A DNA stretch of 64,000 nucleotides, taken from Schmidtea nova. Lineage: Eukaryota. Made by a program: the position numbers and the translations under genes. Position 1 is the first letter of the stretch. The number at the start of each line of letters is the position of its first letter. Shown here piece after piece: positions 24,898-54,404 of this stretch. The notes beneath the pieces are model-generated. The model searched no databases. It was not told the origin of the DNA and saw only the letters and a program-made list of their open reading frames with translations. Location of the stretch: NCBI GenBank assembly GCA_044892505.1, contig CM097884.1:106702001-106766000 (forward strand), in the 5' to 3' direction.

Positions 24898-26885
24898 AGC
24901 TTCTGTTCTTTGGATAGTATATATATATATCGGATTTTTGACTTTCCTTCCTTGGCATCTTCATGTCGTGTTTGACACTGGGAACAAATCATACTTTTTA
25001 ATCTTGATAGCCCATCTGCATTCGAATGTTGTTCACCTTTCCGATATTTTAGTTCAAAATCATATTCAGACAAGTTTGCTAACCATGTTTGAAACTGCGG
25101 ACTGATTGGTGTTTTTGTAGTGTTCATGAAAACCAATGCTTTGTGGTCGGTGCGAATTATGAATTTCTTTCCGTAAAGATATTCTCTAAAATGTATGACG
25201 TACTCATGTACAGCGAGCAGTTCTTTCCTGGTTACACAGTAACCCTTTTCATGTGATGTCATATGTCTCGAACCATATGCTATAACAGATTCTTCTCCAT
25301 CTTCTTTAATTTGGCTCAAAACTGCACCAATTGCTCCAAAGCTAGCGTCTGTGTCTAAGATAAATGTCCTATCTTCTCTTGGATAATCAAGGATAGGTGC
25401 CTCGCACAACCGTTCCTTTAGTGTTTGGAAACTCTCATTGCATTCTTTAGTCCAAATTATATCTTTATCGCATCCAGATGTTGCGGCATATAGTGGTTCT
25501 GCGATTCTGGCGTAGTCTTTAATAAATCTTCGATAATAGTTCGTTAATCCGAGAAACGATCTTAATTGCTTTGAACATTTTGGTATTTCTGCTTTCTCGA
25601 TCTCTTCAACTTTCTTTCTGTTTGTCTGGATACCCTTCTCGTTAACTGTGTGCCCAAGGAAACACAATTCTGTTTTATTGAATTCACATTTTTCTGGATT
25701 TATCTTCAATCCTGCCATTTGAATTCTTCTAAATATTTCCCCTAGTAGCTCATCGTGGTCTTTTTGACTTTTCCCATAAATCAAAATATCATCTAAATAA
25801 ACAACTACCCCTTTGAATAGCATTCCTTCTAGTACTTTGTGCATCAGTCTCTGGAATGTCGCAGGAGCTGTTGCTAGGCCAAACGGTAGTCTGTTAAAGC
25901 AAAATTGTCCTTCTCTTGTACTGAATGCAGTCATTTCTTGAATTTCTGGGGCCAACTCTACTTGATAGTACGCCTGGCCTAAATCAATTGACGAAAATAT
26001 TTTTGCATTCGCTAGACAGTCTAATAAGAATTTGGTATTAGGCATCGGAAATGATTCCTTTTCTGTTATGGCATTCAATCCACGATAGTCTACACACATC
26101 CTGATGGATCCATCTTCCTTCCCTACTATAACTAACGGGGCATTCCAAGGACTCTTGCAACACCGAATAACATTTGCTTTTATTAATTCTTTTATCAGTT
26201 CTTCAATCTTTTTCTCCATGTGCATTGGTTGACGTCGAGGATGTTGCATTATTGGGCCTCCTGTTATCCGCATCTCATGTCGAACTAAATTTGTAAATCC
26301 CAAATCAAATTTCGACGCCATAAATATTCCGCCGTATTTCCTGATCATTCCTTCAATGTCTTTATTATTTTCACTTGCCATCGCCATTAGTGCTTTATTT
26401 ATTCTTTCTTCATCAGTGTGGATTTTGTTTATGTATGAAGTTTCTATATTATTGATCTTCACTAACTTTACTCCAAACTCTTTCATTGTATCAATACCCC
26501 CTATGAATTCTGGCTTGATCTCTTTTACAACCACTACTGTGATAATTTTGGTCTTCTGATTCCATGTGGCTGATATATTCATATATTCCATTGCCTCTTC
26601 ACCTCCAGTTGAAAATACGCCGCATAATAATATAGTACTACGTTGAAGGTCTGGTTTGCCTATTCTCTCCCACAGATTCTTGCTCATGACTGTTACTGAC
26701 GCTCCAGAGTCCCATAACATATCTACTTCTGTATTATTCAACATTATTTTACTCCAACTTCTTCCATCCTTCGTCTGATACATCTCTTCTTCTGCCTCGT
26801 CTCTTCTTCGTTCATTTCTTCTTTCATAATTTATTGCCTTGACTCCACCGACGAAATGAAACCCATGGAGTCGCTGATGTTTTTT
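24834..26885 (-). CDS. Gypsy pol: protease, reverse transcriptase, RNase H
   Basis: LWDSGA, SPWNAP, CVDYR, LPFGL, YLDD, DTDAS, TDHKAL. The frame stays open upstream to the slippery site at ~26880. Confidence 0.93.
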   Translation of the reverse strand, partial: KKHQRLHGFHFVGGVKAINYERRNERRRDEAEEEMYQTKDGRSWSKIMLNNTEVDMLWDSGASVTVMSKNLWERIGKPDLQRSTILLCGVFSTGGEEAMEYMNISATWNQKTKIITVVVVKEIKPEFIGGIDTMKEFGVKLVKINNIETSYINKIHTDEERINKALMAMASENNKDIEGMIRKYGGIFMASKFDLGFTNLVRHEMRITGGPIMQHPRRQPMHMEKKIEELIKELIKANVIRCCKSPWNAPLVIVGKEDGSIRMCVDYRGLNAITEKESFPMPNTKFLLDCLANAKIFSSIDLGQAYYQVELAPEIQEMTAFSTREGQFCFNRLPFGLATAPATFQRLMHKVLEGMLFKGVVVYLDDILIYGKSQKDHDELLGEIFRRIQMAGLKINPEKCEFNKTELCFLGHTVNEKGIQTNRKKVEEIEKAEIPKCSKQLRSFLGLTNYYRRFIKDYARIAEPLYAATSGCDKDIIWTKECNESFQTLKERLCEAPILDYPREDRTFILDTDASFGAIGAVLSQIKEDGEESVIAYGSRHMTSHEKGYCVTRKELLAVHEYVIHFREYLYGKKFIIRTDHKALVFMNTTKTPISPQFQTWLANLSEYDFELKYRKGEQHSNADGLSRLKSMICSQCQTRHEDAKEGKSKIRYIYILSKEQKLWKKYWSNSRRTLGFKSYERY

Positions 26886-28144
26886 CCGTCTTCTCTCAAT
26901 GTAGTATATTTTTCAGGAACATTGTATCTATCTTCCATATCGCTGTGAGCCATTCTGAAATCTTGGCTGTTTTCGGTGTAATCTCTTCTTTCAGATTTGG
27001 AATCTTCTTCTTCTATGCACGCTATTCTTTAATATCGACGGGGCACCTCTTTCCGTAACGAAAAACAATCTCGGAATCCGTGTCCCTCTTTACCACATAT
27101 CAGGCATTTATTTCCCAGTGGGCACTCATATCTTTTGTGTCCCCTTTCGCCACAGCAAAAACAATCACCTACTGTTAATTTTGGAGCCGGTGCTTGTGGT
27201 AGTCCTCTACTTTCGTTATAGATCCTTCTTGCTATATTCTTCATGGAAATTGTTGGCAGTTTCCTTTCTGAGCCATCTTGGATTCTAACATTTCTCAAAA
27301 ATTGTTCTTTTGGGAATTGTTCTCGTCGACCGCGGTTATTTTCTTCGAATTGTATCGGATGTTCATCTCTTCTTGGTCTGTGATGACTAAATGGGTCTTC
27401 TGATTGTCTTCTTTGTGATGGTGTAGGTCTGGTATCTTGAGTATTCTGTTGAATTCTCATTTGCCCTCCATCAATCACGCTGGCATATGTTCTTTTACCA
27501 ATTGATTTAATAAATTCAGTTTTATTGCTTCCCTTTTGGTTACTCTCAAAAATCTTCGCCAATGATCTCGTTTCTTCAATTTTTGTTTCTGGTTTTGTCA
27601 ATAATATTTCCCTCAATCTCGCATCACGTGCTTTATTTGCGATGAGATCTTGAACAATATCTTCTTCTGATCGTCCTGAATTTATAACTTCAGCTAAAGC
27701 TTTCCTTAATCGAATCTCGAAAGCTGCAAAACGTTGATCATCTTCCTGTTCCAGAACTGCCAATTCTCTGATTTTGTCAGTTATTGACTTCGTAATTGTG
27801 AAAGTATTTAGGAACCAAGTTTTGGCTTTCACATCTGTTGTTTCTGTTTCTCTGACGTTTCCCCACAATGTCTTAGCTTCTGCCACTAATAACAAATCGA
27901 AGGTGCTTGTCAATCGCTGTCCATTTGTCAACAGCCATTCTTCTATGTCTCTGATCCATTCTTCTGCTTCTTTCGATCCTCGTCCATCATATCGTCTGAT
28001 ATTCAGAGTGAGCATATCTTGGCATGATTTTGGTAGGCATTCCATTAACGTCTTTGTTGATTTCGAAACTGCATTGACATTCTGATTTTCGGCGTGGTCG
28101 CCAGTTAAATCAAACTCGGTTTTAAAAGACTGAACTTCCTTCAT
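26831..28144 (-). CDS. Gypsy gag with two CCHC knuckles; in-frame TAA at 27029
   Basis: CFCCGERGHKRYEC and CLICGKEGHGFRDC. The frame continues past the TAA (RIACIEEED...GKNISDSMG...RQ*). Confidence 0.85.
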
Positions 28145-29759
28145 AGATTTATTTAATTAAAATTTTATAAAAAGTGCCAAAATACTCAATTATTAAAACA
28201 CCAGTTAATTTAAATATCCAACTGATGTTATAATAAATTAAAAGATTTTTATAAAAATACACTTTATATTTATATAATCCTAAAATCCATAATTGATTCA
28301 GCGAAAATTAACCCAAATAAACCTAAAAAATCCTTTTTGCAAATCATAACATCCATTTCATTCATTAGTAACATTCATATATAATACTAAATAAAAATCC
28401 ATTCATTTCTCAACACACGCACTACATTGTTTCAATTATTAACATCTACCAGCATCAAACACCCATAAAATACACACCCAAAATTCATTTGATAACATGT
28501 GTCTGCATCATACATCCAGAAAATCTCACAAGCACTCATCCAATCTCACCCACCACTAAATTACTTGTTTTCATCCAGCATTCAATTCAACATACAGACA
28601 CATACAATAACATATAATCACATACAATCTCCTTGCAACTATCACCATGAAAATTCATAATAAACCTGTAAAAGTAACACAACATACAAACTCGAAATTA
28701 TAGCATCCCACATCATACATAAACATGCATACCTCCAACAAGACAATGCCAAAGTTTCATTCATTCAACAACCACAAAACATCATATTCATTTTATTATT
28801 TATTTTTATATTATAAAATAAGTCAAAAACTTCCGGTAAAAATCAGAACCAACACCCACAAAAAACAAAAACGATATTTATTTTTATTCAAAAATTTCAG
28901 TTAAAATAAAGTCAATAATTAACTATTAGTCTTTATTATAAAGTAAATTAAGCTTTCACATAAAATCAATAATCACGAACAATGGTTATTTTTATTATAA
29001 AGAGAATAAAAATTGTTTATCGATCAACGTTGCGCAAATACCGAGGAAAACTGATTGTCTGAGGAGTGAATGAGAAATCTCAAAATAAATTCCACTCAAA
29101 AACAGAAATTTGTGACGAACTATTAAAGGATTTCTTCGGAAAATGCCGGATCCTATTACTGATAATCCTGTTCACTTGTATTCTCATGGCTCTGACCTTT
29201 ATAGTTTTAGTTGATGAGAAGTGAAAAGATGCTTTCTGAATTCCGGTATTCAATTGGGAGGATATTGGCATAATATTTAAACAATTCATTTAAATATATT
29301 CCGATAGAAATCAATAGCTGATACTTAGTAGGAAGATTCGTAAATGTTTTATCGATTCAGATATTCCTTTAGAATTAGATAACTCTATTGGCAGCTTAGG
29401 ATTGACATTGAATAGTGAAATTGATTGGAACCATTGATCCCAGCTTCCGTGTTCAGATGCTATGAAAGTAATTAATTTCAGATTATCGATTTGAATTAAT
29501 AAATTTACTTATTTTTGCCAATAAATGAGCTTTCATAGAGAATTGGAGCAGCATTCAAATTTCCTAAAGGTTAAATAAAAGTTTAAACAAATGGAATATT
29601 AATAGAAATTTAAAGCAAGAAAATTATTTCAAGATATAAAAATAGGGAAAAACCTAAAGTAGAAATAAAATTATTTTCGTAAATTAAAAATTAAAGTTTT
29701 TATTTTATTTTAAATATGGGATAAAATTTTATTTTAGAATGCTTTAATTAACAATTACC

Positions 29760-30150: not shown

Positions 30151-30661
30151 CAGCAAAAATTAAACAGCCCATATGCCAACATTGTTATAGGATAGATGCA
30201 TCCGAATATTCCGTGTAAATGACACGCATTATCCAAAACTCATAGAACACTGTTAAAATTTTTCGATATTTTTCAAAATATAATTAATCAGTTTTTCCTA
30301 AAAGCGATTATGACTAAATTAGCTCAAACATAAAAGGAATATAATTGTAAATCTTTGAAAATGTTTATATAAAAAATTGGATAACAGTTGCGTAAAAAAG
30401 AAATAGGCATACAAATTTAATTTGAAAATCAAATAACATTGAAATGCTTAAAAAATTTTAAAAACAAATTTCAAAGTAAAATATTATATTTATTATTGCC
30501 TGAAAATATATTATAAATTTGCTTTCAAGATTTTAGATTTATTTACACATTAAGTAGTTGAAAAATATATGATTTAGTTTAATATTAATTAAATTATACT
30601 AATTTGTTTAAATAGTGCATCAGTGTGGGCTTTTTGACTTAGATATTTCTCATTTCAAATA

Positions 30662-31338
30662 ATGAATCTTATAGTTCGAGGTCTTCCTCCATCAACTACT
30701 TCATATGAATTGACTGATTACTTTAAAGTATTTGGACCTGTTGAAAAGGCATATGTCATGGAAGATAATGGATATGTGGTAATTAAAATTATTTTAAACT
30801 TCTCAGTTTTATATAAATTCTGTAAGCACATGTATAATAGAGAAGATGGAATTAAGATATTAAATTCTATGAGAAATCTCCACATGCAAGGTAGAAGATT
30901 ATTTATTGAGCCTGAAAGTAGAGATATGGGAATGAATAGAGATAGGGAAAGAGAAAGCTATCATGATCCAATGCCTAATCCCTACGGTGGGTGGACTGAA
31001 ATACCAAGGGATGTAGGCCATTCTTATGATTATGGAATGCCATTGGAAAGGTTTTCAAAAGTTGATGCCGATCCATGGAAACAAGTTATTCCGGAACATA
31101 ATTTAAATGGATCTCGATCAGAAGAGTAATAAACCATAATTGTGATCCTTATTGATATTATATAGGAGATTGGTCACCGAATCGTATGTTTATGTTGATC
31201 CACATGGGTACTCTCGTGATCCAACAATGCGCCCAGCACCGGAATATTATTATCGGTATTTTTTATTTATTGTTTTCAATAACATTTTTCTTTGTTTTTA
31301 GGATCAAACTTCTTGATACAAAATCCAAGCACAATTAA
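30662..31338 (+). CDS. RRM-domain RNA-binding protein, RBM4/lark-like N-terminal RRM, multi-exon
   Basis: LIVRGLP (RNP2); DNGYV|HM (RNP1) once the GT-AG intron 30779-30826 is removed; GRRLFIE. Further candidate introns ~31126-31165 and 31256-31301; the 3' exon structure is uncertain. Confidence 0.75.
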
Positions 31339-35715: not shown

Positions 35716-35869
35716 AAAATTATGTAGATAACTGAATTAATTTATTAATGTACCCCGCCCTACCAAAAGTCTCCAGTCAGACAGTTATTTGCATATTGCA
35801 GTTTATAATGAACAGCACTGGAAACAAATGTCACAAACACACACGAATACTGAATGTCTGTAGTGCTGA

Positions 35870-36703
35870 GACAGTTGGTACTTCGTTTTATTACCTTTCA
35901 TCTGCATAACAAGGTGCACTCGTTTAGGAATTGTACTGACCAATTTTGCCAGGAAATCAGGGGAGATATGTGGCCATTCCTCATACAGATGCGTTTCCAG
36001 TTCGGAGACGTTACGTGTAATGGGAATCCTTTTGCGAACTCTTCTACCAAGGACGTCCCTCAGAAACTCAATAGGATTCAGATCAGGGCTTTGTGGAACC
36101 AAATCCAAAACGTTGATGCTGTGCTGCAGAAAAAATTCCTTCATAATGTGCGAAGTATGGATTGGTGCATTATATTGTTGGAAAATGAGCCTCTCAATTT
36201 CTGGGAGAAAGGGAACAAGCTCATTTTCCAGAATGACATGGTATTCCATTGACGTCATGTGATTACTGCACTTAACTAGAAGGCCAGTTCCACGAGCTGG
36301 GAAAAGACTCCAAAACATGATGGAGCTTCCTCCATATTTCACAGTTGGCTGAATGCAGTCAAGGTGAAATCGTTCTTCTACACGACGCCAGCAGAATTGC
36401 TGTCCATCAGATTTGAAAAGAGTGAAACGTGATTCATCACTCCAAATGACTGAGCGCCATTGTTCAACTGTCCAACTCCTTCTCTCCTGGCACCATTTAA
36501 ACGACTTCGACGAATTCTTTCTGTAATCAAAGGCTTCCTTGCGCAGTATATATCTTAGAAACCATGAAAATGTAATGCGCGACGAATGGTGGACATTCTG
36601 GGATGTACAGGGCCAGTGTTAAATGTGGACACTAACTTGGACAGAGGGAACCTTCGATGAGCCACCACAAGTTGTTTCAGCTGCCGTTGTTTACGGATGC
36701 TCA
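35870..36703 (-). pseudogene. Tc1 transposase, C-terminal part
   Basis: IWSDESRF, TVKYGGSSIMFW, FQQYNAPIH (catalytic D>Y), QSPDLNPIE; stop and frameshift present. Confidence 0.9.
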
Positions 36704-37841
36704 TGTTGAGGTTCCAAATATTTGCTATTTGCAATCTCAACTTGTTATTGGGGTGATTCTTATATAAATATCAAAAGCAAAGTTTGTTTTTCAAAATTTT
36801 ATTAATACAATAAAATTACTTTTTATTTCGTTTACAATTGTCTACGAATAACTCAAATTCTTTATTACACAAATTTAAAAAGAAAAAGTCGTATCAAATC
36901 AATTCTTGCAATTGAACCTATTGGGTGACTGTTATGTAGTGCGTGCTATATTTAATTGTGGATCCAATGTTTCTGATCCGGGTTTTAATAAGTTTTTCAA
37001 GATTGCCTTGAAAACTCAATTTGCGCTAATTTTAAATCTTGATTTTACACTAGATTTTAAAGCTAGGATTTTTTTGGGCCTCTTTACTGATTTTTTCTTT
37101 AGTTTATATAGTAAAATTTGGTATGGATAAATAATTTAATTTCCGGTCTGATATTAAAATATTATTAAATTTAGTTTTCAATTTATTCTATACTCTGCGA
37201 TTAAAATAATTATATTTCAATTTCCGTTCTTGTCGTGATATTAAAATTTTCAATTTATTCTATACTCTGCGATATAATTATATTTTAATTTCCGGTCTTG
37301 TCACGATATCAAAATTTCCAAATTATTTCGTATTCTGTGATATTAAAATATTATTTAGATTTGATTATTTTTAAACAACTGAATTAAATTATTTTATTTA
37401 TTGATCTGTTTGTTTTATATGTATATACAACTCATAAAATAATAAAAGGAATAAAATACACATCAAGATAAAAGGAATAAAATACACATCAAGATACACC
37501 TATTTTATATGTACATGCAAATCATAAACTACACATCAAGATATATTAAAAGAAAACAATTGTTTGTTGAGAAATGTCACAATAATAAAATGTCACAATC
37601 ATATTAATTTTCTTGATTTCTGTGATGGGAGTTGCAATCTTTGTTGAGAAATGTCACAATAATAAAATGTCACAATCATATTAATTTTCTTGATGGGAGT
37701 TGCAATCTTTGTTGTGTGGCTTGGATTGGTATTCTGTGTATTGGGATTCCGCGTAAATGTTGATCCTATAGCTGTTAGGCCCTGTCCTATAATATTTATT
37801 TAGGACAAATGCTTGGATGGGCTTCCCTCGATCATCCAACA
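36704..37841 (-). repeat. 3' LTR of the large Gypsy element
   Basis: TGTTG...CAACA; same length as 49332-50469 with no mismatch seen by eye. PPT GGGAGGAA adjacent (37842-37849). Confidence 0.95.
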
Positions 37842-39651
37842 TTCCTCCCAGGGCCGTCAAGGTAATGTCCTCATTACCTTTTTCACTCAGGACCATTTCA
37901 ATTTCTTTATCCTTTAATTTCATTATTGTTCTCTTGAATCCTTTCTTGATTGCCAGATTTAGGGTATCATCTTCCTCAATTCGTCTTCCGAAATGGGTAC
38001 ATAATTGTTTTTCCGTTATCTCTTTTTGGTCGGCACTTATAATGAAGCTAGGTTCTTCCTCCTCTTCTATTTCCATTTCAATGTCTGGTTCTGGTCCTAA
38101 TTCGTCTTCTGCTTTTATTTTACTCTCCATTTCTTTTGTGAAGTCTTCTTCGTCGTCTTCCTCAACTGAAAAATACTCTTCGTCCGAATCTAAATCGCAT
38201 ATGTCTTCTCTTTCTTTGTATTTTTGTATTAGTTGCGGTTCGTTTTTGATCATTATTTGATTTTCTGGTGGTCCTTCTTCTTTTGTAATCATTAGGTCGT
38301 CATCACCATCTTCATGTATTGTTTCTTCCATATCTGAATTTTCATCCATTATTATACTTTCTTCTTCGCTTTCCTTCAACTCTTCCATACATGATTTTCT
38401 GTTTTGCATCTGGTATAGGTCTCCTTTCATTTCGATATCGTCTGTTATTGGTGTATCACTTTGTAACGATGTTGAATCTGCTGAATTCCATTTTATTATA
38501 GGTTCCCATTTGTCTTCTACTATTCCATATATTACCTTTAATATTGTTGTTGTCTTTCTGGCAGAAAATGGCTCACTTTCTACTAATGCTTAATTCAGTC
38601 TCTTATCTTTGTACCATCTCTTATGGTATTTAATCACTTGGTAAGCTAAGTTAGATAGCTTAATTTTGAGTGGATCCACGTTTTTCACGAATGAGCACAT
38701 AAATTTATCTCCGGCCATTTCTCTCATTCCTGCAATGTTGTCTAGACCAAATGTTAGCATTTTTAATTTATCTATCATATCAAATCCTATGATTATTTTT
38801 CCCCACAACAGCTCTCTAATATCCCATAGAGCCTGGTACTCATCTTCATTTCCGACGATACTTTCTTTATTAACCATTGTTTTTTCTGTGCAGAAGTTTT
38901 TTATCTTCGTTCTTGGGGTTATCTTTTTGTTGTATATAATTTCACCGTTGTATTTTCTTATACATACTTCTACTGGTCGCTTGTTGTCATTTTTATCAAT
39001 TGCAAATTTTGCATCCAAGAACATAATTAGTTGGTGTCTCTCTTCTGTGGATAATTCATTGTGTGTGAAAGAGATTTTTTCATTTATCCAGCTTTGATCG
39101 TACCAAGGTTTTGAAGGGATTGGCGGCATTGATTGGAATGGATTTGATATCAGAGGGATATAGAGAATCTCGATTCCTATGACACACGGTAAGTTGTTCA
39201 TTTGGATTATGAGGTGATTAAAATCGTCTGGCATACTTCTGTTGTTTGTAATTGTTTTGATGATGATTGAACAATTACTTGTTGTGATTATTGGTACTTT
39301 ATGTTGGCAAATTGATACCTCGGTTTTTGTCATGTGGAATAGGATTCTATGTGGTACCTTTTTTCCTTCGATTACCGCTTTGTCGACATTAAGATGTTTT
39401 TCAAATGTGCCGATTAGGTCTTTTAATTTTGTTCGTCGAGCTTCATTAAATTTGATAATGTGTAGTTCTCTTTCTTCAATTTCCACTTTCATATCATTTG
39501 GGATGCATACTTGGTTTGGGAAGCTTCTGATTGTGATTGGATTTCCATCGGTACATATTTTGTTTTGTAGGGTTTTGTAAAAGTTTAGAGGGTGTTTGTT
39601 GATCATAGCCACATAGTTCATAGATCGAGAATAATTTGGCTCTGATTGCAT
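37681..39651 (-). CDS. ORF2 accessory protein (~656 aa if the TAA at 38590 is bypassed): unknown N-domain, degenerate DEDDh exonuclease fold, acidic tract, C-terminus in the 3' LTR
   Basis: The 502-aa and 249-aa ORFs share a frame and are joined by 53 open codons after a single TAA. Motif spacing parallels REX4/ISG20. The likely start is MQSEPNY at 39651. Confidence 0.7.
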
Positions 39652-40030
39652 TGTTAATTGAAGATACAAGAATCGGGATATTGATTGACAATAAAACACT
39701 AAGAATCGGGATATCGACTGATAAGTTAGTAAACGATAAAACACTAAGAATATAGATTGATAATGAGATCGAGATATGATTTTACGACTTGATTTGTGAT
39801 TGGATTGAAAATTGGAACGATTTGATTGGGAGTTGGTTTGATTGTTTTGATTGTGCTGAGGATTTGATGTAAAACTGGCTTTATTGGGTTGTTTGCCAAA
39901 TGGGTGACTTGTTTTTCTAAAAATAAAATGTAAATTTTTATGTTGAGAGCGTATTTCAGGTTTAACCTTATACGCTATTTTATAGATACAGATATATGTG
40001 ATTTTAATATATATTATTGACCAATTTAAC

Positions 40031-40240
40031 TTATACCAATGTAGACCTCGAATATTCACCTGGTATATATTTACCCAAATGGAAATGCCCTGGTACATTT
40101 CTGACCAGTTGGCTCCGATACCGCTGCCTTTTCCATTTGTACTTTTTATAAACTTGTACGCTAGTTATTAAAGCTAAAACTGCTAATGCTATTATTGATG
40201 TTGTGATGACATAAAAAGGCCAATGTGGATTTTTATCTTT
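40031..40240 (-). CDS. In-frame extension of the polyprotein beyond the TAA: TM helix, basic stop-transfer, tail ending STLV
   Basis: *KDKNPHWPFYVITTSIIALAVLALITSVQVYKKYKWKRQRYRSQLVRNVPGHFHLGKYIPGEYSRSTLV*. Confidence 0.7.
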   Translation of the reverse strand, partial: KDKNPHWPFYVITTSIIALAVLALITSVQVYKKYKWKRQRYRSQLVRNVPGHFHLGKYIPGEYSRSTLV

Positions 40241-43200
40241 TTAACGAAATGCTTGTAGTTCCTCTAAGTTATGTATCACTATTGGTCTTCCTTGCCTTAT
40301 TTTGATAGGTTCTTGTTTTTGTTTTTTGGCATTGTATTGTTTTTGGAGTTTGGCTATTCCAGTGCTTGTTGGTATTTCGTTTGTATGTAGTGTGGTATTT
40401 AGTCTATTATTTGATGTCGTTGTTGTGCTTTTTGTTATGTTTTGGTTTTTTATTATATCCTTGGGTAATTGTTCTGTTTTTATCTCTTTGCATCTCCATG
40501 TTGTTGTATCTGTGTTTCTCTGTATGCAGATTTTATATATTGTATTAGGTGTTAGTTTTGTGAAATTAATATAGTTTCCTCTTTCAATTTCGTTGGTTGT
40601 TCTGTCGTCCTTTCCTTTTATCATCTTTGGGTTTTTTCCATTCGTTGTTTGCATGTATAAATCAATTACTCCTCTATTTATGATAAATGCTCTAACTTCG
40701 TTTGTTGATATTTTTATTAATACTCTGTCAAATTCTATTGTTTCGGTTGAGCCAACAATTGTTATGATTGTTAAGAAGATAGCTGATATTATTAGTTTGT
40801 TATGAGATCTTAGATTATACTTGTGAGGTTTATCTATCGTGACCTCGGCTTCCGCCAACTTGCATCTGTTGACATGTACTACTATTGGATCCTCGTTTTT
40901 ATGCTTTTGTAAATGTAAATTCTCATTTATTACTTTTACTACTTCATATGGACCTTTATATGGTCTTGCTAATTTTGTTGTCTTTCCCTTTCCTACTTGT
41001 GGTGACATAAGTCTAACCTTATCACCTACTTTAAAGTTGTGTGGTTTACTATTTTTGTCGTAGTCGGCTTTGTATTGTTCTTGTCTATATTTGACTTTTA
41101 GATTGGCTACTTTATACACTTCTTGCAGTTTTTCCTGCATTAGTGTGACATAATCTGGTGCATCCAAATATTGTGATACTCGAGGTTCAAATATTGTATC
41201 TATTGGTGTTGCTGGTTCTCTTAAAAACATTAAATAATACGGCGAATACCCTGTTGTTTCGTTTGGAGTGATATTATGAATGTATGTGCATTGACTTATG
41301 TATTCGTCCCAATCATTTTGATTTTTTCCTACAAAAACAGCTAGTCTGCTTAGTAATGTCCCATTAAATCTTTCTACTAGTCCATCAGTTTGAGGGTGAT
41401 ACGCTGTTGTGTTGATCTTTTGCATGTTAAAAATATTAGCTACTCGTTTTATTAATTCACTAGTAAAATTTGTTCCTTTATCTGTTAATAATCTTTTGGG
41501 TGTGCCTATCTTGAAAATAATTTTTTCTATAAGCAATTTAGCAACTGTTTCTGCTGTTTCGTCTTTTGTTGGAAATGCTTCTGCCCATCTAGTAAAATAA
41601 TCACTAAATACTAGTATATGTTTATTCCCATTAATTGTAGTAGGTAATTTACATAGAAAATCCATTGCACATAGTTCCATTGGTGATGTTGTTGCTGGAA
41701 TGGGGTGTAACGGCGCTTTTGTTTTTGTACCTGTATTTTTTCTTGTTGCACATATTGTACACGCGTTACACCATCTCTTAACATCTTTCTTTAGTTCTTC
41801 CCAGTAATATTTTTGTAATAATCTACTTGCTGTCTTTCTAGATGATAAGTGACCTCCTAATGCTCCATCGTGATATTGTAGTAGGAGTATTTGTCTTAAT
41901 TTCTGAGGTACTACTATTAATTGCTTACCGTTGAAATCTTCTATTACTACTAATTTCTTTGATATTTTATATTTTGAATTGTTTTCTTTTCTGATTTCAT
42001 TCCTTATTCTATTGATCTCTGGGTCTTTCATCTGTTCCTCATATATATCTATTGGCTTTTCTGCTACTAGTGCAAATATTTCAAGTGCTCCTAATTCTGG
42101 TATTCTTGATAGTGCATCTGCGTTTTTATTTATTCTACCTGGTTTATATATAATTTTTAGGTGCATGTCTTGTATTTTCATTGCCCATTTAAGTAATCTA
42201 CTTGATGTATCTTTATGTTTCCATAAGCCTTCTAATGGTTTATGGTCTGTTCTTATTATCACTTCAGTTCCGTAGATGTATGGTTTGAATTGTTTTAGGG
42301 CAAATACTATTGCGTAACATTCTTTTTCTATTGTTGAATACCTCAGCTGTGCTCCTTTTAATGTTTTACTGGCATATGCTATTACGTAATCTTTCCCTTT
42401 CTCTTCTTCTTGGCCTAATACTGCTCCTACGGCTTTCCCGCTGGCATCTGTCATTACTATAAATTGTTTTTCGAAATTTGGGTATCTTAACACTGGTGCT
42501 GTTATCAATCTTTCTTTTAGTTTGTCGAATGCTTCTTGATGTTCTTTTGTCCATTTCTTTTGTATCTTGTTAACTTTATTGTTAATTTCTTGTACTATTA
42601 ACACGTCTTTGCATTCTCCTTTTGTTTTAATTCCCTTTGTTAGTTCTATTATAGGTGTTGCTATCTTTGCATAATCTTGTATGAATTTACGATAGTATCC
42701 TGTTAAACCTAAAAACCCTTGTACCTGTTGTACTGTTTTTGGTATTGGGAATTTCTTTACAACTTCTATTTTTTCTGGATTTGGTTTTATCCCTTCTACT
42801 GTGACTATATGCCCTAAAAATAGTGCCGAAGACTCTGCCCACTTACATTTGGTTGGTTTAATTTTTATCCTTGCTTTTCTTAGTCTCTCAAGTACGTTTG
42901 TTATATCTTTTAGATGTTCCTCGAATGTCTTTGATGATATTAATATGTCATCCATGTAAACTGCGCAGTGTTGTACATTTACTAATATTGTGTTCATTAG
43001 ACGTTGAAATGTGGCTGGCGCATTAGTTAATCCGAAGGGTAATCGTGTGTACTCATATAAACCATCCTCAATAACAAATGCTGTTTTTTCTGCGTCCCCT
43101 TCTTCCATTTGAATTTGCATATACCCCTTATTCGCATCAATGACTGAAAAATACTTAGCATCCCTAAGTTTATCATATTGCTCTTGTGCTTTTGGGAATG

Positions 43201-46200
43201 GATATGAATCTTTTACTGTTACATCATTTAATTTACGATAGTCAATGCACATTCTTATTTCTCCGTCTTTCTTTTTGACGGGTACAATGGGTGATGCCCA
43301 CTGTGAAAAACTTTGTTTTATTACACCTGCGTCTTTTAATTCTTTAATTTGTCGCTTTATCTCCTCTCTTAGTTTGTATGGTACGCTATATGGTCTTTGT
43401 TTTATTGGTCTTGCATTGCCCGTATCTATTACATGTTTGATTATGTCAGTATCTCCTAAATCAAATTCATGTTTTGCAAAAACATCGCTGTATTCATCTA
43501 TTAGTGTCTGTAATTGTGCTTGTTGTGTTATTGTTAGGTATTTATTATTGATTTTCACTTTGTCGTATGATTTTATACTATTTGTCTTACTAGGTTCGAC
43601 CACTCTTTTGCCGTTATCATTTATCACACTTGTCTCGCTGACTTCATACGTTTTCTCTAATTTGCCTTTGAATAGTTTTCCCAATTTTGTGCCTTTGTGT
43701 ATTTTTATATTACATTTTTCATAATTCGCTATTCTTAATGGGATTATTCCCTTTTTTGGAATTACGCATTCATTAGTTAACATTATATTTTGTGTAATTG
43801 CCGTTTCTGGCTCGAAAATAAAAGTGTCCTCACTTTTGACGTTAACTTTTATGGGGATTATATGATCACACTCATATTCTAGTTCGAATGCTTCTAATGC
43901 AACAACTTCCGTGAACTTGGACTTATGTTTGATAGCTTTTCTTTTAATCGTGTTATCCGTTAAGTCTATGATGCAGTTATTCAGCTTGTTGAGTATATCG
44001 ATCCCTAGTATACATATGCTATTGCATTCTTGTACTACTTTAAATATGTGGTGTATTACTTGTTCTGATGTTTCAACTACTAATTCAATATCTCCTTTTA
44101 GTGGAATGTAGTGTGCTGATAGTGTTACTACTTTATCCGTTGTTTTCATAATATTTCTCTTTTCACCATCTGTAAGTTGATCTTCCCTAATTAGGGACGT
44201 TGCTGCTCCAGTATCTACTAGTGCATTTATGATTATATTGTTTATAATTATTTTAAGTCTTGGCCTTGCTTCGTTTGCTGTCTCTAATTGCTCCATCATT
44301 TCGACTTCCAAGCTATAACAACCATATATTTTTTTGGGTTCACAGTAACAATTCTTACTTTCTCTAGGAATTTTAATCTCTATATTTTCTTGTAACTCTT
44401 TTAATTGTTCTCTTTGGTTTTCATATAGTCCTTGTTGTGGTGCATTTCCTTCATGTGATATATGCGTTTTAACTATTTCCTCATTGTTTTCATCATCTAT
44501 CAATATTTGCCTTTCTTCATTCCTTTGGATTTTTATTAAACGTATTTCTTTATCATGTTTTGCCGTAATCAGGTATTTGGCTACAAACGGGCATAAACAT
44601 GCTAGTAATTTATATGAATTTCCGAATACTTGTTTCAGCTGTCGTAGTGATACTAAAGAAGAACAAACCATTTTTAGTAAAGCAACCGTATAATAAATTC
44701 CTAAAATTGTAGAGAACATGTTTCCAAGGACTGCAAAATATCCCCATATACTATATAATACTTTGTATGCTACTTTTTTGAAATACTCTTTTGATAACAA
44801 CACGTCAAAATTGTAATTTCCTCCGTAACTTCCTTCGATAATTTTGTTTACCATTATTGACAGTATTCTTTCTTTTTCGTTTGAAAATAACATGTGTTTT
44901 CTTGCACTTTCTATAGCTTCTCTCGTATATATGCCATTGCTATATATATCGTTGATTTCTTTAAACTCCAATCTTTTTTCAAGCTCTATGAGTTCTAATT
45001 TGAGTGGTTTCATCGCCTCTTTCCTATCTGACATAGATATCCACATTTCGTCATTTATTTTGTATAATGGATCCAATAAATTAGTGCATTTTTCTATTTT
45101 TCTTGGTACATATGTTTTTTCTGTTAGTATTCTAGTAATTGGTTGAAGGTATACCCTTTCTCCTTTGTATATTACTGGTAACTCATTTGTGCACTGATTG
45201 TTTGTTGCCAATGATACACTAACAGGTTTGCATTGAAATGTCTGTATCACTTCTCCTACTATCCTGGCAAATGTTCCTTCTTCTGAGAAGATTATTGGTG
45301 CCATCAAATCTGGGTTTGTTACCGCGACTGCCATTTTTGTCCTTAATATTTCTCTGTTGAGTTTGCAATCGCTCATGATTGTTGATTGATATACTTTATC
45401 TAATTGCACTAGTTGATTATGATAGAAAAAATCTATTTTATTGTTGAAATATGATGCGAGTTTGACGTCGAATTTATTTACTTTTTGTTTTGCATCTTTG
45501 ACTTCTTCTTTGCTTATGTATATCCCTTCATAATTAGTTTGTATTATTTCCTTACCACATTTTACACTTTTCCTTTTACTAACAAACCTCATTGCTTCGT
45601 TTTCAGATTCTGACATATATATTGTTGGTGTATCTTTTTCTTGTACAATTGTTGTTTTCCTTTTTTGATCTCTCACCCTTTTTGAGTCTACTTCTGTGAA
45701 CTGTTTTCCCTTGATTTCCCTAAATTTTAATGATTTTAATTTTGTTAACTGACAATCATATTTATCTATTTTGTATATTAGCATTGATTCTCCTGTATCG
45801 CAATAAGATTCTTCTAATGTACAAAATTTGTATATCATCATTTTCTTTGAGCTGCTGTCGAATGATGCTTTGAACTTTCTCAGTTCTACCATGTAGTGTC
45901 TCCTTACTACAACATTACTCAGTTTTTCGCCCCATATTGTATATTCTCCTCCTTCACAATATCCTCCTTTTGATGTCCATCCCACGACATTTACATCTTG
46001 TCTCATTTTTGCCCCTATCCTTGCTTCTAATTCTATTCCATTATGACCGCTATATTTTACTTTTTTTGTTTTAAATGCATCTTCACACTCTATTGGTGAC
46101 AATATTACTGCTTCGGGTGTCCACGTAGGTTTTAACACTGTTCTTGCCCCAACATGACATATATATGCTTCCTCCTGATACTTTACTATGCACTCTTTGG

Positions 46201-49090
46201 CCTCTGTATGAATAAAGTCTGATTCTTGATAAACATGGAATATTTGAGGCTCTGACATGATTAATTTAGTTGGATTTGCTTCAGGGCAATTTTCAACATC
46301 TAACAGTGAGTATTTTTGTCCCCACTTTGGATTTTGACAATCATATGCTACCATTGCATTGCCTCCCTTGATTAAATCTAATAACAAAGTGATAATGACT
46401 ATTACTATGGAGGTTATCGATTTACTCTCTGTCTTTGGTTTTACTGTTGCTTTCTTTATTAATTGTTTTATTACCTCATCTGTATCACTCTCTTTATTCG
46501 TCGTATCTTTATCATATAATACTTTCCATCCTCCTTTCTTTTTTATCCATGGTATTGCCTCTACTTTCAATCTTTTAAACATTATTGTTGCTACTTTTTC
46601 TAATTGCTCTTTTGGATTTTCCTTTATGAGCTTTTTATATCTTGCGGCCAAGTATGCCATGGCCGTTATTATTTTATCTTTATCTATCCCTGTATTAAAC
46701 ATGATTTTTAACACTGTTTTTTCATTTGCTTCCTCTGTAGCTAGTTCTTTAGTATCCTTTTTAATTAACATCATCCTTTCAGTTATATTTTCAATAAGTA
46801 CTGTTGGCTTTGTTTCTGGAAATAGCTTAATATTCATTGCTTTTATTACTTCTTTTATTTTGTTTACGTCATTATTATCGTCTTGATACTCTGGTTGTTC
46901 ATGTTTATGTTGATTTGCAATCTCTCTTAATCGTTCTGCTGTCTTCCTATTCTCCGATTTTTCTATTATTTCTGATTTTCGAGGTCTTCCTCTACCTCGT
47001 TTTGATATTTCTGCATCTTTTGTTTTTGCTTCCTCAGCTATTCTTTCTATTGTTTCTTGTAAGTTACTATACTTTTCATCTATAGGTTTAAATATAATTT
47101 CTTCATCCATTACTGATTTCTTTGTTTCGCTAGGTGATTTATCCCATAGCCTAAATAATCTATCAAAATCGTTTTCTTCATTTATACTCAACTCAACCGA
47201 CGGTACTGGCGTCATTATTTCATTGATCATTTGTTTTTCTACTGTGGCTACCACAATATTATCACTTACTGGGTTTATCCCATAATCGATTAAGTACTCG
47301 TCACTTAATAATTCTATTCCGTTAAAATATAATTTTATTACATCTTTCTCTCCTATGGTTCCTGGCCATTTGGCTCTTACCATTCGTTTTAATTTGCTCA
47401 CTTTAGTGCAAGTATGCATCTTTTGTTTAATACTAAAAAAATAATTATCATTTGATTCAATCGTTACATTTAGTGTTTCATGCAATTTTTCATTTTTTCT
47501 TATATATTCTCCATAACATTTCAACATCTCTTTTATTTCTATTTCTAATTCAAATACTCTCGTTACATTTTGTCTCTTTACCATCATTGGTATCAAATTT
47601 CTAAGCTTGTCTAATTCAATCCCATTAACTTGTATTTTATTGATTATTCTCAGTGTTTCGTTATCCTCAAATGGTTGTTTATACAATATCTCTTTAAATT
47701 CTTCTATCAATTCTTTTTGTTTATTTTCTTCTGTGAGAAATATTTCATCTGCTTCTCTAATTTCTTTTAACTCATCATTATCGATATCTACTTCATTTGT
47801 AAAAGTACTAAATTCATTTATAGACATTTCAAGCTTTCTCTCAATAAGTCTTCCATATTGCGTTTTAAATTCTTTTAATTCTTCTCTTAATATGTTTATT
47901 TCTTTATTTGCTGATTCAAGCTCAGCGCTATTTACCTGCTTTATCTCAGGCTCATTTTTAAATCTTACTCTTATCGGTGAATCTGCTCGTGGTTTATTAT
48001 ATACCTTTGCTAGGTGACCATACTTTTGGCAATTGTAACATTTTATTTGTCCATTAAAATTCACTTTATCCCTACCATCATTATTATAAGTATTTCGCCT
48101 CACTGGGCTATCTTGTCTATTTCTCGAATTATCTCTGTATCTATTATCTCTTCTATTATATTCGAAGCGACTGTCTCTATTATTTCTATTATATCCACTG
48201 TAACTGTTATAACCAGAGCGATTATCTCTAAAATTATTATCTCTGTCAAAACGGTTGTCTCTAAAACTATCTCTATTATTATTCCCTTTATAGTTATCTT
48301 TAAAATTATCTCTATTTCTATTATCAAAATTTTTATTTCCTGGACTGTTAAACCTTCCCTTGTTTTCAGGTGATTGGCTTCTATTAGGACTAAATTTTCT
48401 TCTATTATTAACAAAATTCAAATATAATTGTTTCATTTCTTCCGAAGGGATACTATCATCTTTACTTTTCAACTCAGGTTTTACCTCAAGTTGCTTTTCA
48501 ATTTCTACAGCGTCTATCTCTGGTCTAAATCGATCTCTTTGTATTGCTTCTATGCGTTTTGCTTTTTGTACTAATTCATTTAAGTCTTCATATTCAATCG
48601 TAATTAATGCTTTGTATAAATATTTTTGGATTCCGTTCCAAAACTGATCCTCGATTAACCTACTAGTGTGATCTCCTGCACCAAATGCCTTTTTTGCTAA
48701 TTCTGTTATCGTGTATATATATTCACCTACTGATTCTCTTGCTCCTTGGTATCTACTTCTAAATTTTTGAACATTTATTTTTTGTAAGTCTCTATCTATT
48801 ACTATTTCTTTTCTAAGGTTTGTAACTAACTCTTGATAATTAATGCCTTTACATGCCAAATTATTGTATGCTTGTAATGCGTATCCTTTTAAGTATAATG
48901 GGATTCGTTGTTTTAATTCATTTGTTTTCCATCCGCAAGCCTCTGCGTATTGTGCGATTTCGGCAAAAAAGTCGTCGAACTTTTCAGGGTCTCCTTTATA
49001 TGATTCTATTGGTAGTGTTTTTATAAAATTATGACTGTTTCCTATGTTATCGTTATTACTGTTGTTACTACTGCTTGTACTATTACTCAT
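40241..49090 (-). CDS. 2949-aa polyprotein: Gag - Ubl - AT-hook - Bcl-2-like - envelope glycoprotein - PR - RT - RH - IN - FN3
   Basis: Gag N-terminus (YKGDPEKFDDFF..GW), CYNC..GH, LYFNG..L.DYGI, RGRGRPRK, WIKKKGGW, AYDC..Cys-rich..TM, LVDTGA, YMDD, TDAS, HHCC, DDE, GPY, LTPNTIYKICI. Confidence 0.95.
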   Translation of the reverse strand: MSNSTSSSNNSNNDNIGNSHNFIKTLPIESYKGDPEKFDDFFAEIAQYAEACGWKTNELKQRIPLYLKGYALQAYNNLACKGINYQELVTNLRKEIVIDRDLQKINVQKFRSRYQGARESVGEYIYTITELAKKAFGAGDHTSRLIEDQFWNGIQKYLYKALITIEYEDLNELVQKAKRIEAIQRDRFRPEIDAVEIEKQLEVKPELKSKDDSIPSEEMKQLYLNFVNNRRKFSPNRSQSPENKGRFNSPGNKNFDNRNRDNFKDNYKGNNNRDSFRDNRFDRDNNFRDNRSGYNSYSGYNRNNRDSRFEYNRRDNRYRDNSRNRQDSPVRRNTYNNDGRDKVNFNGQIKCYNCQKYGHLAKVYNKPRADSPIRVRFKNEPEIKQVNSAELESANKEINILREELKEFKTQYGRLIERKLEMSINEFSTFTNEVDIDNDELKEIREADEIFLTEENKQKELIEEFKEILYKQPFEDNETLRIINKIQVNGIELDKLRNLIPMMVKRQNVTRVFELEIEIKEMLKCYGEYIRKNEKLHETLNVTIESNDNYFFSIKQKMHTCTKVSKLKRMVRAKWPGTIGEKDVIKLYFNGIELLSDEYLIDYGINPVSDNIVVATVEKQMINEIMTPVPSVELSINEENDFDRLFRLWDKSPSETKKSVMDEEIIFKPIDEKYSNLQETIERIAEEAKTKDAEISKRGRGRPRKSEIIEKSENRKTAERLREIANQHKHEQPEYQDDNNDVNKIKEVIKAMNIKLFPETKPTVLIENITERMMLIKKDTKELATEEANEKTVLKIMFNTGIDKDKIITAMAYLAARYKKLIKENPKEQLEKVATIMFKRLKVEAIPWIKKKGGWKVLYDKDTTNKESDTDEVIKQLIKKATVKPKTESKSITSIVIVIITLLLDLIKGGNAMVAYDCQNPKWGQKYSLLDVENCPEANPTKLIMSEPQIFHVYQESDFIHTEAKECIVKYQEEAYICHVGARTVLKPTWTPEAVILSPIECEDAFKTKKVKYSGHNGIELEARIGAKMRQDVNVVGWTSKGGYCEGGEYTIWGEKLSNVVVRRHYMVELRKFKASFDSSSKKMMIYKFCTLEESYCDTGESMLIYKIDKYDCQLTKLKSLKFREIKGKQFTEVDSKRVRDQKRKTTIVQEKDTPTIYMSESENEAMRFVSKRKSVKCGKEIIQTNYEGIYISKEEVKDAKQKVNKFDVKLASYFNNKIDFFYHNQLVQLDKVYQSTIMSDCKLNREILRTKMAVAVTNPDLMAPIIFSEEGTFARIVGEVIQTFQCKPVSVSLATNNQCTNELPVIYKGERVYLQPITRILTEKTYVPRKIEKCTNLLDPLYKINDEMWISMSDRKEAMKPLKLELIELEKRLEFKEINDIYSNGIYTREAIESARKHMLFSNEKERILSIMVNKIIEGSYGGNYNFDVLLSKEYFKKVAYKVLYSIWGYFAVLGNMFSTILGIYYTVALLKMVCSSLVSLRQLKQVFGNSYKLLACLCPFVAKYLITAKHDKEIRLIKIQRNEERQILIDDENNEEIVKTHISHEGNAPQQGLYENQREQLKELQENIEIKIPRESKNCYCEPKKIYGCYSLEVEMMEQLETANEARPRLKIIINNIIINALVDTGAATSLIREDQLTDGEKRNIMKTTDKVVTLSAHYIPLKGDIELVVETSEQVIHHIFKVVQECNSICILGIDILNKLNNCIIDLTDNTIKRKAIKHKSKFTEVVALEAFELEYECDHIIPIKVNVKSEDTFIFEPETAITQNIMLTNECVIPKKGIIPLRIANYEKCNIKIHKGTKLGKLFKGKLEKTYEVSETSVINDNGKRVVEPSKTNSIKSYDKVKINNKYLTITQQAQLQTLIDEYSDVFAKHEFDLGDTDIIKHVIDTGNARPIKQRPYSVPYKLREEIKRQIKELKDAGVIKQSFSQWASPIVPVKKKDGEIRMCIDYRKLNDVTVKDSYPFPKAQEQYDKLRDAKYFSVIDANKGYMQIQMEEGDAEKTAFVIEDGLYEYTRLPFGLTNAPATFQRLMNTILVNVQHCAVYMDDILISSKTFEEHLKDITNVLERLRKARIKIKPTKCKWAESSALFLGHIVTVEGIKPNPEKIEVVKKFPIPKTVQQVQGFLGLTGYYRKFIQDYAKIATPIIELTKGIKTKGECKDVLIVQEINNKVNKIQKKWTKEHQEAFDKLKERLITAPVLRYPNFEKQFIVMTDASGKAVGAVLGQEEEKGKDYVIAYASKTLKGAQLRYSTIEKECYAIVFALKQFKPYIYGTEVIIRTDHKPLEGLWKHKDTSSRLLKWAMKIQDMHLKIIYKPGRINKNADALSRIPELGALEIFALVAEKPIDIYEEQMKDPEINRIRNEIRKENNSKYKISKKLVVIEDFNGKQLIVVPQKLRQILLLQYHDGALGGHLSSRKTASRLLQKYYWEELKKDVKRWCNACTICATRKNTGTKTKAPLHPIPATTSPMELCAMDFLCKLPTTINGNKHILVFSDYFTRWAEAFPTKDETAETVAKLLIEKIIFKIGTPKRLLTDKGTNFTSELIKRVANIFNMQKINTTAYHPQTDGLVERFNGTLLSRLAVFVGKNQNDWDEYISQCTYIHNITPNETTGYSPYYLMFLREPATPIDTIFEPRVSQYLDAPDYVTLMQEKLQEVYKVANLKVKYRQEQYKADYDKNSKPHNFKVGDKVRLMSPQVGKGKTTKLARPYKGPYEVVKVINENLHLQKHKNEDPIVVHVNRCKLAEAEVTIDKPHKYNLRSHNKLIISAIFLTIITIVGSTETIEFDRVLIKISTNEVRAFIINRGVIDLYMQTTNGKNPKMIKGKDDRTTNEIERGNYINFTKLTPNTIYKICIQRNTDTTTWRCKEIKTEQLPKDIIKNQNITKSTTTTSNNRLNTTLHTNEIPTSTGIAKLQKQYNAKKQKQEPIKIRQGRPIVIHNLEELQAFR

Positions 49091-49310: not shown

Positions 49311-49329
49311 GTCCCGGTTCGCGGCACCA
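49311..49329 (-). promoter_or_regulatory. Primer binding site TGGTGCCGCGAACCGGGAC
   Basis: 2 nt inside the 5' LTR boundary and complementary to a CCA-ended tRNA 3' end (Phe- or His-like; identity uncertain). Confidence 0.85.
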
Positions 49330-49331
49330 AA

Positions 49332-50469
49332 TGTTGAGGTTCCAAATATTTGCTATTTGCAATCTCAACTTGTTATTGGGGTGATTCTTATATAAATATC
49401 AAAAGCAAAGTTTGTTTTTCAAAATTTTATTAATACAATAAAATTACTTTTTATTTCGTTTACAATTGTCTACGAATAACTCAAATTCTTTATTACACAA
49501 ATTTAAAAAGAAAAAGTCGTATCAAATCAATTCTTGCAATTGAACCTATTGGGTGACTGTTATGTAGTGCGTGCTATATTTAATTGTGGATCCAATGTTT
49601 CTGATCCGGGTTTTAATAAGTTTTTCAAGATTGCCTTGAAAACTCAATTTGCGCTAATTTTAAATCTTGATTTTACACTAGATTTTAAAGCTAGGATTTT
49701 TTTGGGCCTCTTTACTGATTTTTTCTTTAGTTTATATAGTAAAATTTGGTATGGATAAATAATTTAATTTCCGGTCTGATATTAAAATATTATTAAATTT
49801 AGTTTTCAATTTATTCTATACTCTGCGATTAAAATAATTATATTTCAATTTCCGTTCTTGTCGTGATATTAAAATTTTCAATTTATTCTATACTCTGCGA
49901 TATAATTATATTTTAATTTCCGGTCTTGTCACGATATCAAAATTTCCAAATTATTTCGTATTCTGTGATATTAAAATATTATTTAGATTTGATTATTTTT
50001 AAACAACTGAATTAAATTATTTTATTTATTGATCTGTTTGTTTTATATGTATATACAACTCATAAAATAATAAAAGGAATAAAATACACATCAAGATAAA
50101 AGGAATAAAATACACATCAAGATACACCTATTTTATATGTACATGCAAATCATAAACTACACATCAAGATATATTAAAAGAAAACAATTGTTTGTTGAGA
50201 AATGTCACAATAATAAAATGTCACAATCATATTAATTTTCTTGATTTCTGTGATGGGAGTTGCAATCTTTGTTGAGAAATGTCACAATAATAAAATGTCA
50301 CAATCATATTAATTTTCTTGATGGGAGTTGCAATCTTTGTTGTGTGGCTTGGATTGGTATTCTGTGTATTGGGATTCCGCGTAAATGTTGATCCTATAGC
50401 TGTTAGGCCCTGTCCTATAATATTTATTTAGGACAAATGCTTGGATGGGCTTCCCTCGATCATCCAACA
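49332..50469 (-). repeat. 5' LTR of the large Gypsy element
   Basis: Matches the 3' LTR and is followed by the PBS. Confidence 0.95.
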
Positions 50470-50473
50470 CTCA

Positions 50474-54105: not shown

Positions 54106-54118
54106 CCTGTACTACAGC

Positions 54119-54404
54119 CAACAAAATCACCAACATTTTTAATCAAACAGATTTGCCTATCCGTCCAACGTTCATAACCTCCGCACCGTTAAAATCACAA
54201 CTCCGAAAGCCACCAATTTCCAACATCTGCAAACATAAATGTCTTTGTCGTTCCACAACCCGATGCTTTTGCTTTTCCAAAAATATAGTATATAAACTTT
54301 CTTGCCAAAAATGTGACGCTACTTACATAGGAGAAACACATAGAACTTTTCGCACCCGACTTAATGAACACACTAAAATCAAAACCAGTTTGTGCACAAA
54401 ATAA
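54119..54404 (+). mobile_element. Penelope-like element fragment (GIY-YIG endonuclease)
   Basis: C..KNIVYKLSCQKCDATYIGETHRTFRTRLNEH; near-identical copy at 63760-64000. Confidence 0.88.

Follow-up and report, generated by a model that had tools for sequence, protein, structure and literature searches.

A conserved, catalytically degenerate ISG20-like exonuclease fold and an oxygenase-like barrel predicted in ORF2 of an env-bearing Ty3/gypsy element

ORF2 of an env-bearing Ty3/gypsy LTR retrotransposon encodes a predicted ISG20/REX4-like exonuclease fold in which four of the five catalytic residues are replaced, the replacements are fixed across copies and subfamilies, and the domain is under purifying selection. 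The element lies in a 64,000-nucleotide stretch (the window, to which all unlabeled positions refer) of an animal genome of 1.25 Gb. The ORF2 family is an enzyme-derived accessory ORF of LTR elements, has two domains, and occurs in active and dead forms. Judged from its sequence, the window protein appears to work like a pseudo-exonuclease, outside the active DEDDh family, and we tentatively propose that it binds RNA. Functions are known for only a few of the accessory proteins that animal LTR retrotransposons encode, and it is still debated whether such elements encode a counter-defense against RNA silencing. Here a single genome holds high-copy elements that keep the nuclease intact alongside others whose version of the protein is dead but selected, which offers a natural paired test.

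The element is 13.8 kb long and, like every feature of it described below, is read from the minus strand. Because its 5′ LTR (49332 to 50469) and 3′ LTR (36704 to 37841) are identical in sequence and are flanked by a CTCA target duplication (50470 to 50473 and 36700 to 36703), the insertion is young. A PBS-like TGG motif lies at about 49313 to 49330. ORF1 (40241 to 49090) is a single-frame polyprotein of 2,949 amino acids in which Pfam recognizes a gag zinc knuckle, a Bcl-2-like segment, a Monjiviricetes-type fusion glycoprotein (PF24664, E = 1e-82), protease, reverse transcriptase (RT), RNase H, and integrase. The Bcl-2-like segment (residues 790 to 855, about 46526 to 46723) sits between gag and env and has a Pfam E value of 1e-5, under the curated cutoff; it was undetected at E = 0.001 in the scanned ORF1 parts of three sister lineages. 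ORF1 ends at a premature stop (40241 to 40243) that is private to 1 of 29 copies, and beyond it the frame continues for 69 codons (40031 to 40243) through a hydrophobic, membrane-anchor-like segment.

ORF2 (37681 to 39651) comprises 656 codons when an X is read at one internal stop. In order, it encodes the barrel (residues 9 to 169, 39145 to 39627), the exonuclease-like domain (residues 208 to 387, 38491 to 39030), a poorly conserved acidic linker with a net charge of −44 (residues 390 to 545, 38017 to 38484), and a C-terminal module (residues 546 to 656, 37681 to 38016) that is partly conserved between subfamilies and whose end overlaps the 3′ LTR. An earlier, sequence-only reading had described a degenerate nuclease domain spanning the stop and had taken the two flanking ORFs to be one gene. 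All the peptides that it quoted are found in a single frame of the minus strand at 38527 to 39030, and the TAA (38590 to 38592, codon 354) sits between KLSNLAYQVI and PFSARKTTTILKVIY, where it had been placed. A host-genome search returned 52 full-length matches at ≥91% identity, of which 50 were retrieved and 49 analyzed; these 49 are gapless over all 206 codons of the domain, and one copy with 205 aligned codons was dropped. The TAA occurs in 1 of the 49, the window copy itself. Six other copies have a stop elsewhere in the domain, each private to a single copy, and contigs from three of three public sequencing runs (one study, possibly the source of the assembly) have no stop at the TAA site. 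Since the stop is found in only one copy, the joined 656-amino-acid reading is right, ORF2 being one gene broken in the window copy, and both programmed read-through and two separate genes were rejected. The stop is thus a private lesion and not a feature of the gene, which corrects the earlier description. Copying or assembly errors may account for both private stops, which lie in a copy whose LTRs are identical.

Assignment of the exonuclease-like domain to a fold rested on profiles and on a structure model. On its own, the window domain matches ISG20L2 (E = 0.004) and ISG20 (E = 0.005) weakly. With a profile of four subfamilies (4 rows) the corresponding values were 4e-5 and 6e-5; a 15-row profile reached 3e-13, and a 36-row profile reached 8e-18 and 4e-15. 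Pfam finds nothing in the window ORF2, including RNase_T (PF00929), which is matched by 11 of the 15 rows of an alignment that includes intact sister families (A4), and an Atlas search with the exonuclease part returned RNase_T clusters at 0.95. The structure model (residues 1 to 395, 36-row alignment, X at the stop) had a pLDDT of 86 and a pTM of 0.83; an earlier model from a 4-row alignment, with a pLDDT of 46, was set aside. Residues 208 to 387 of the model superimpose on human ISG20 (the ISG20/ISG20L2/REX4-type set, PDB 1wlj and 7yw5) with a Z score of 18.2 and an rmsd of 2.3 Å over 161 aligned residues, and ISG20L2 follows with a Z score of 17.9 (Foldseek E = 7e-8). Lower matches were Pan2 (Z = 14.5), DnaQ and SDN1 (PDB 5z9x; Z = 13.9 for both), and Exuperantia (PDB 5l80; Z = 10.4). 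A REX4/ISG20-like DEDDh fold, as proposed from the sequence, is therefore what both approaches recover.

The active site of this fold is degenerate. Against the canonical D-E-D-H-D, the window subfamily reads D-K-K-F-T: the ExoI Asp is kept as D213 (codon from 39015), and the ExoI Glu, the ExoII Asp, and the ExoIII His and Asp are replaced by K215 (39009), K295 (38769), F362 (38568), and T367 (38553), respectively, so that the first acidic residue is the only one left, as had been noticed. In the superposition, residue 208 of the model pairs with residue 6 of ISG20, in agreement with the sequence columns; if the strand is gapless, D213 then corresponds to D11 and K215 to E13. According to excerpts of a published account, single loss of D11, D94, or D154 abolishes the nuclease activity of ISG20 (PMC7756014). 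Judged from the modeled site, the ORF2 domain very probably lacks nuclease activity. An invariant Asp, D294, stands one position ahead of the ExoII column. Ahead of the ExoIII motif, all four dead subfamilies and none of the intact families carry an insertion (38590 to 38628) of roughly 13 residues, many of them K, R, W, Y, or H, in which H343, K344, W346, K348, and K350 are invariant. ORF2 shares its fold, best profile matches, and motif register with the ISG20/ISG20L2/REX4-type enzymes, but differs from them in four of five catalytic residues, in the insertion, in the fusion to a barrel, and in being encoded by a retroelement.

These replacements are not the state of one damaged copy. D-K-K-F-T was found in 48 of the 49 window-subfamily copies, the remaining one reading N-K-K-F-T, and in all four old subfamilies, which are 57 to 66% identical over the domain. 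At K215, K295, F362, and T367 the amino acid is kept while the codon differs silently between subfamilies. Over the whole domain, silent sites are saturated (pS = 0.75 to 0.82) versus a pN of 0.13 to 0.26, and 99 of 206 residues are invariant across the four subfamilies, with silent codon differences at 82 of the 94 that are able to vary silently. Within the window subfamily, variants common to at least two copies comprise 26 silent and 8 replacement changes, a ratio of 0.08; the first 30 copies had been picked by protein score, which biases this ratio downward, and the 19 lower-scoring copies gave 0.07 for shared variants. Private variants had a ratio of 0.47, and of 0.54 in lower-scoring copies, closer to neutral, as is expected after insertion. 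The ORF2 domain is thus under purifying selection and does not evolve neutrally among its copies. Constraint is much weaker on the acidic linker (dN/dS = 0.16 to 0.68).

The intact sister families, like the barrel, had been missed by the sequence-only reading. Multicopy homologues of ORF2 were obtained by searching the host genome with Pfam RNase_T and with follow-up searches. Intact families (tblastn E of about 1e-18) sit downstream of the same type of env-bearing ORF1, and 43 of their 44 extracted domains read D-E-E-H-D, the last ending in V; most intact sisters thus differ from the D-E-D-H-D of ISG20 and REX4. A third high-copy env-bearing lineage (C1:506.79–506.81 Mb and other loci; 72 matches) has a 716-codon frame directly after the ORF1 stop and is differently dead, reading A-H-F-L-D. 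The three lineages are deep in a pol tree, which settles no branching order among them. In a 17-row tree, which includes long branches, two dead lineages were grouped (86/91 and 88/90) and two alternatives were rejected (p-AU of 0.03 and 0.015). The strongest RNase_T match of the host genome, a 395-codon open frame (C2:259417007–259417531), is presumably a host ERI1-type exonuclease.

Beyond this genome, a profile search of 1.84 billion representatives yielded 65 proteins at E ≤ 1e-30 among the 150 matches listed. Catalytic losses were counted in the 45 library proteins, among the matches listed, that have both domains and all five columns filled, gapped rows being excluded. The distribution was bimodal: 32 proteins had lost none, 0 had lost one or two, 1 had lost three, 3 had lost four, and 9 had lost all five, and the 13 dead proteins showed 13 different replacement patterns. 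One of the 32 intact proteins, P0093, groups with cellular-like enzymes and, from its place in the tree, is probably not a family member. A 69-row tree built without the catalytic columns required 4 changes to the dead state (bootstrap 2 to 4), and a single origin was not rejected (p-AU = 0.415). In this tree, among the library matches listed, P0094 was the sister of the window clade (99/91, on a long branch); it has the same dead two-domain core and, in addition, a C3HC4 RING at 746 to 791. On a 2.4-kb metagenome contig (L175), a partial dead paralogue (2 to 607) lies directly upstream of P0004 (896 to 2221), a canonical D-E-D-H-D member. Six proteins (P0042, P0065, P0066, P0088, P0059, and P0067) have two to four profile-matched stretches each, which are possibly tandem exonuclease-like domains. 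A word-indexed protein search gave nothing with a single copy or with alignment A5, and 5 proteins with A4.

A comparison of the four dead subfamilies along the element showed that ORF2 has a history of its own. Their gag-env-pol regions are 85 to 95% identical in nucleotides up to about position 39913, after which identity falls to 58 to 71% over ORF2, and most of the LTR is unalignable between them. Silent divergence is 0.16 to 0.26 in env and pol versus 0.70 to 0.86 in the two folded ORF2 domains. In protein, the ORF2 variants are 54 to 60% identical on a gag-pol backbone that is 92 to 96% identical. The step in identity coincides with a splice-acceptor-like motif (39917 to 39929) that is present in all four dead subfamilies and, together with the 5′ extension of ORF2 that follows it, occupies 39652 to 39929. 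In 28 of 29 copies this extension contains no stop and keeps the ORF2 phase; its length falls into six classes and varies by multiples of three. No convincing splice donor that would place ORF2 in frame was found by eye near the gag start, and no sharp identity step at ORF2 was seen in three intact families. These features suggest that ORF2 is expressed from a spliced message, with a start possibly upstream of the ATG at 39651, and that it has been exchanged together with its LTR by recombination. As far as sequence comparison goes, ORF2 and the LTR behave like one old cassette carried by gag-pol backbones that are nearly identical. The sharp split between active and dead forms, the dead and intact members side by side on L175, the RING-fused relative, and this cassette-like exchange suggest that the fold was repurposed and not lost.

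The explanation that we favor, tentatively, is that ORF2 encodes an RNA-binding pseudo-nuclease that shields or handles element RNA. The sequence-only reading had likewise suggested a pseudo-nuclease that binds RNA or acts as a decoy, possibly against host RNA decay or silencing. This element group likely captured an active REX4/ISG20-type nuclease, and one to four losses of catalysis likely followed in which the binding groove was kept. The barrel would be packed on the ISG20-like domain, and the product would bind RNA without cutting it, holding it in the former active-site groove; it would probably shield or handle transcripts of the element in the face of host 3′-end decay or small-RNA surveillance. 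Binding to nucleic acid is reasonably likely; that the product acts on RNA of the element itself, or on RNA surveillance by the host, is a plausible but tentative proposal. In support of the RNA-binding explanation, two lysines and an aromatic residue are new to the site, and the conserved basic and aromatic insertion is adjacent in sequence. The family is bimodal for dead and intact members, ORF2 travels with its own LTR type, and Maelstrom, EXD1, and PML PXL are precedents for dead exonuclease folds that bind RNA. Against it, dead domains are no more basic than intact ones (net charge of +3 to +6 versus +4 to +6), the invariant charged residues include 17 acidic ones beside 19 basic ones, D294 is invariant near the ExoII column, and the RING of P0094 fits a protein adaptor equally well.

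Such an adaptor or decoy, in which the dead fold would bind a host factor (for example, a partner of the host REX4-type nuclease or a silencing protein) and titrate it or bring it to an effector with no need for RNA, is a credible but rather unlikely alternative. The RING-fused dead core of P0094, as the closest relative of the window clade among the matches listed, argues for it, as do the long branch to that clade (1.94, versus 0.54 for the intact families), the persistence of four old ORF2 variants on one backbone, and the presence of the Bcl-2-like segment in the same element. However, Pfam finds no RING in the window protein, and the conservation of the former active-site residues suits a ligand in the groove.

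The N-terminal barrel bears on another alternative, that of a structural part. Residues 9 to 169 of the model match an algal prolyl 4-hydroxylase (PDB 2jij) with a Z score of 11.6 and an rmsd of 3.5 over 152 aligned residues, followed by a viral prolyl 4-hydroxylase (PDB 5c5t, Z = 11.1), Ofd2 (9.4), and ALKBH6 (9.1), and the domain is predicted to be the double-stranded beta-helix core of a 2OG-Fe(II) oxygenase. An Atlas search with this domain gave no usable match (0.76). The iron triad of such oxygenases is HxD/E...H; H-x-D/E is absent from residues 1 to 175 of the window protein and was not found in the matching segment of the relatives viewed, with strands mapped by the spacing typical of the motif. 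A different His, H106, is kept in 30 of 31 covering rows (by eye), and E161 is kept in 33 of 33. The metal motif is missing in intact and dead members alike. An ORF2 of this family, be it intact or dead, is present in each of the three deep pol lineages examined, which points to a shared noncatalytic role. With the defined two-domain packing of the model (pTM 0.83), these observations would fit a structural component of the particle or RNP (packaging, export, or scaffold) for which the two folds are only a stable frame. This is improbable, since ORF2 variants 54 to 60% identical on a backbone 92 to 96% identical would be a loose match for a capsid partner.

A rewired site, in which D213 and D294 would coordinate one metal and the two lysines would stand in for the other, giving a weak or different nuclease or phosphatase, would account for the invariance of D213, D294, K215, and K295 across the four subfamilies; it is very unlikely, because the site has lost both its general-base His and its ExoIII Asp and 13 patterns in 13 dead proteins leave no shared alternative chemistry. 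A decaying relic that hitchhikes in a successful element could explain the stop in the window copy and those in 6 other copies of the 49, but this is scarcely credible and was rejected, as the stops are private to single copies, silent sites are saturated, 99 of 206 residues are invariant (82 of 94 with silent codon differences), and the shared-variant ratio is 0.08. A broader extension of the RNA-binding proposal would be a widespread, so far undescribed retroelement accessory family, a dead oxygenase barrel plus an ISG20-like domain in active and pseudo-enzyme forms, whose pseudo-enzyme suppresses host RNA decay or piRNA silencing in animals, is exchanged between subfamilies with the LTR as a counter-defense cassette, and in some members is linked to a RING ligase; we regard this as speculative and, taken whole, unlikely.

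Several known systems share parts of this arrangement. In excerpts of the account of rotifer elements, Juno and Vesta LTR retrotransposons and Terminons encode a DEDDy exonuclease, ORF3, with intact invariant residues, a DEDD-to-DEED change, and no clear departure from neutrality reported (PMC5408684); the excerpted part of PMC6338049 only cites this case. In both systems an LTR element carries an additional ORF for a DnaQ-fold exonuclease, and the DEED change is also seen in the intact sisters here. The rotifer protein, however, is an RNase D-like DEDDy exonuclease for which the excerpts mention no oxygenase barrel, whereas the ORF2 family is DEDDh, partly dead, and under purifying selection. 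The best matches of ORF2 are DEDDh enzymes and its relatives have a His in ExoIII, so it is not of the rotifer DEDDy type. The planarian gypsy-like elements Burro/GYPSM1, as excerpted, encode gag, a BCL2-like motif, and a mononegavirus-like env before protease and RT, and Burro exceeds 30 kb and carries MATH, BIR, ankyrin, and dUTPase cargo (PMC6431247). The window element has the same polyprotein order, with gag, the Bcl-2-like segment, and env in frame before pol, but is 13.8 kb long and has no MATH, BIR, ankyrin, or dUTPase match to Pfam in ORF1; the excerpted Burro account names no exonuclease or oxygenase ORF. Phalaenopsis Ty3/Gypsy elements, again as excerpted, have an AlkB/2-ODD accessory ORF whose product is active as an m6A demethylase and is close to AlkB of plants (PMC9289625). 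As in ORF2, an accessory gypsy ORF thus encodes a 2OG-Fe(II)-oxygenase fold. By structure score, however, the ORF2 barrel is closer to prolyl 4-hydroxylases; it also has no HxD/E and is joined to an exonuclease fold.

Among host proteins, dead exonuclease folds are reported, in the excerpts seen, to bind RNA in Maelstrom and EXD1 (PMC5408684), and PML PXL is described as an RNA-binding exonuclease fold without catalysis (PMC13659232). With Exuperantia, these pseudo-exonucleases resemble what is proposed for ORF2 in having the fold without catalysis and a reported RNA binding. They differ in being host genes from other DEDD branches, while ORF2 is on the side of the mobile element. Viral ExoN domains and fungal pseudonucleases are reportedly treated in the literature. 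Our literature search found no account of the barrel-exonuclease fusion or of its dead form, though the Burro supplements or Repbase may annotate such ORFs.

Other features of the window were recorded in passing. The LTRs contain several internal short repeats (37206 to 37714 and 49834 to 50342), and near 37420 one region contains TGTATATA, which resembles a Pumilio element. Another Ty3/gypsy element, frameshifted and with protease, RT, RNase H, and integrase but no env detected, lies at 23722 to 28156 (minus strand). Two DDE transposase fragments and one integrase fragment are found on the minus strand at 20566 to 21483, 35803 to 36618, and 53295 to 54188, the second transposase fragment adjoining the insertion point of the LTR element. 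On the plus strand are a host-like exon with an RRM (30638 to 31129) and a host-like galactosyltransferase ORF (57712 to 58776, E = 2e-37).
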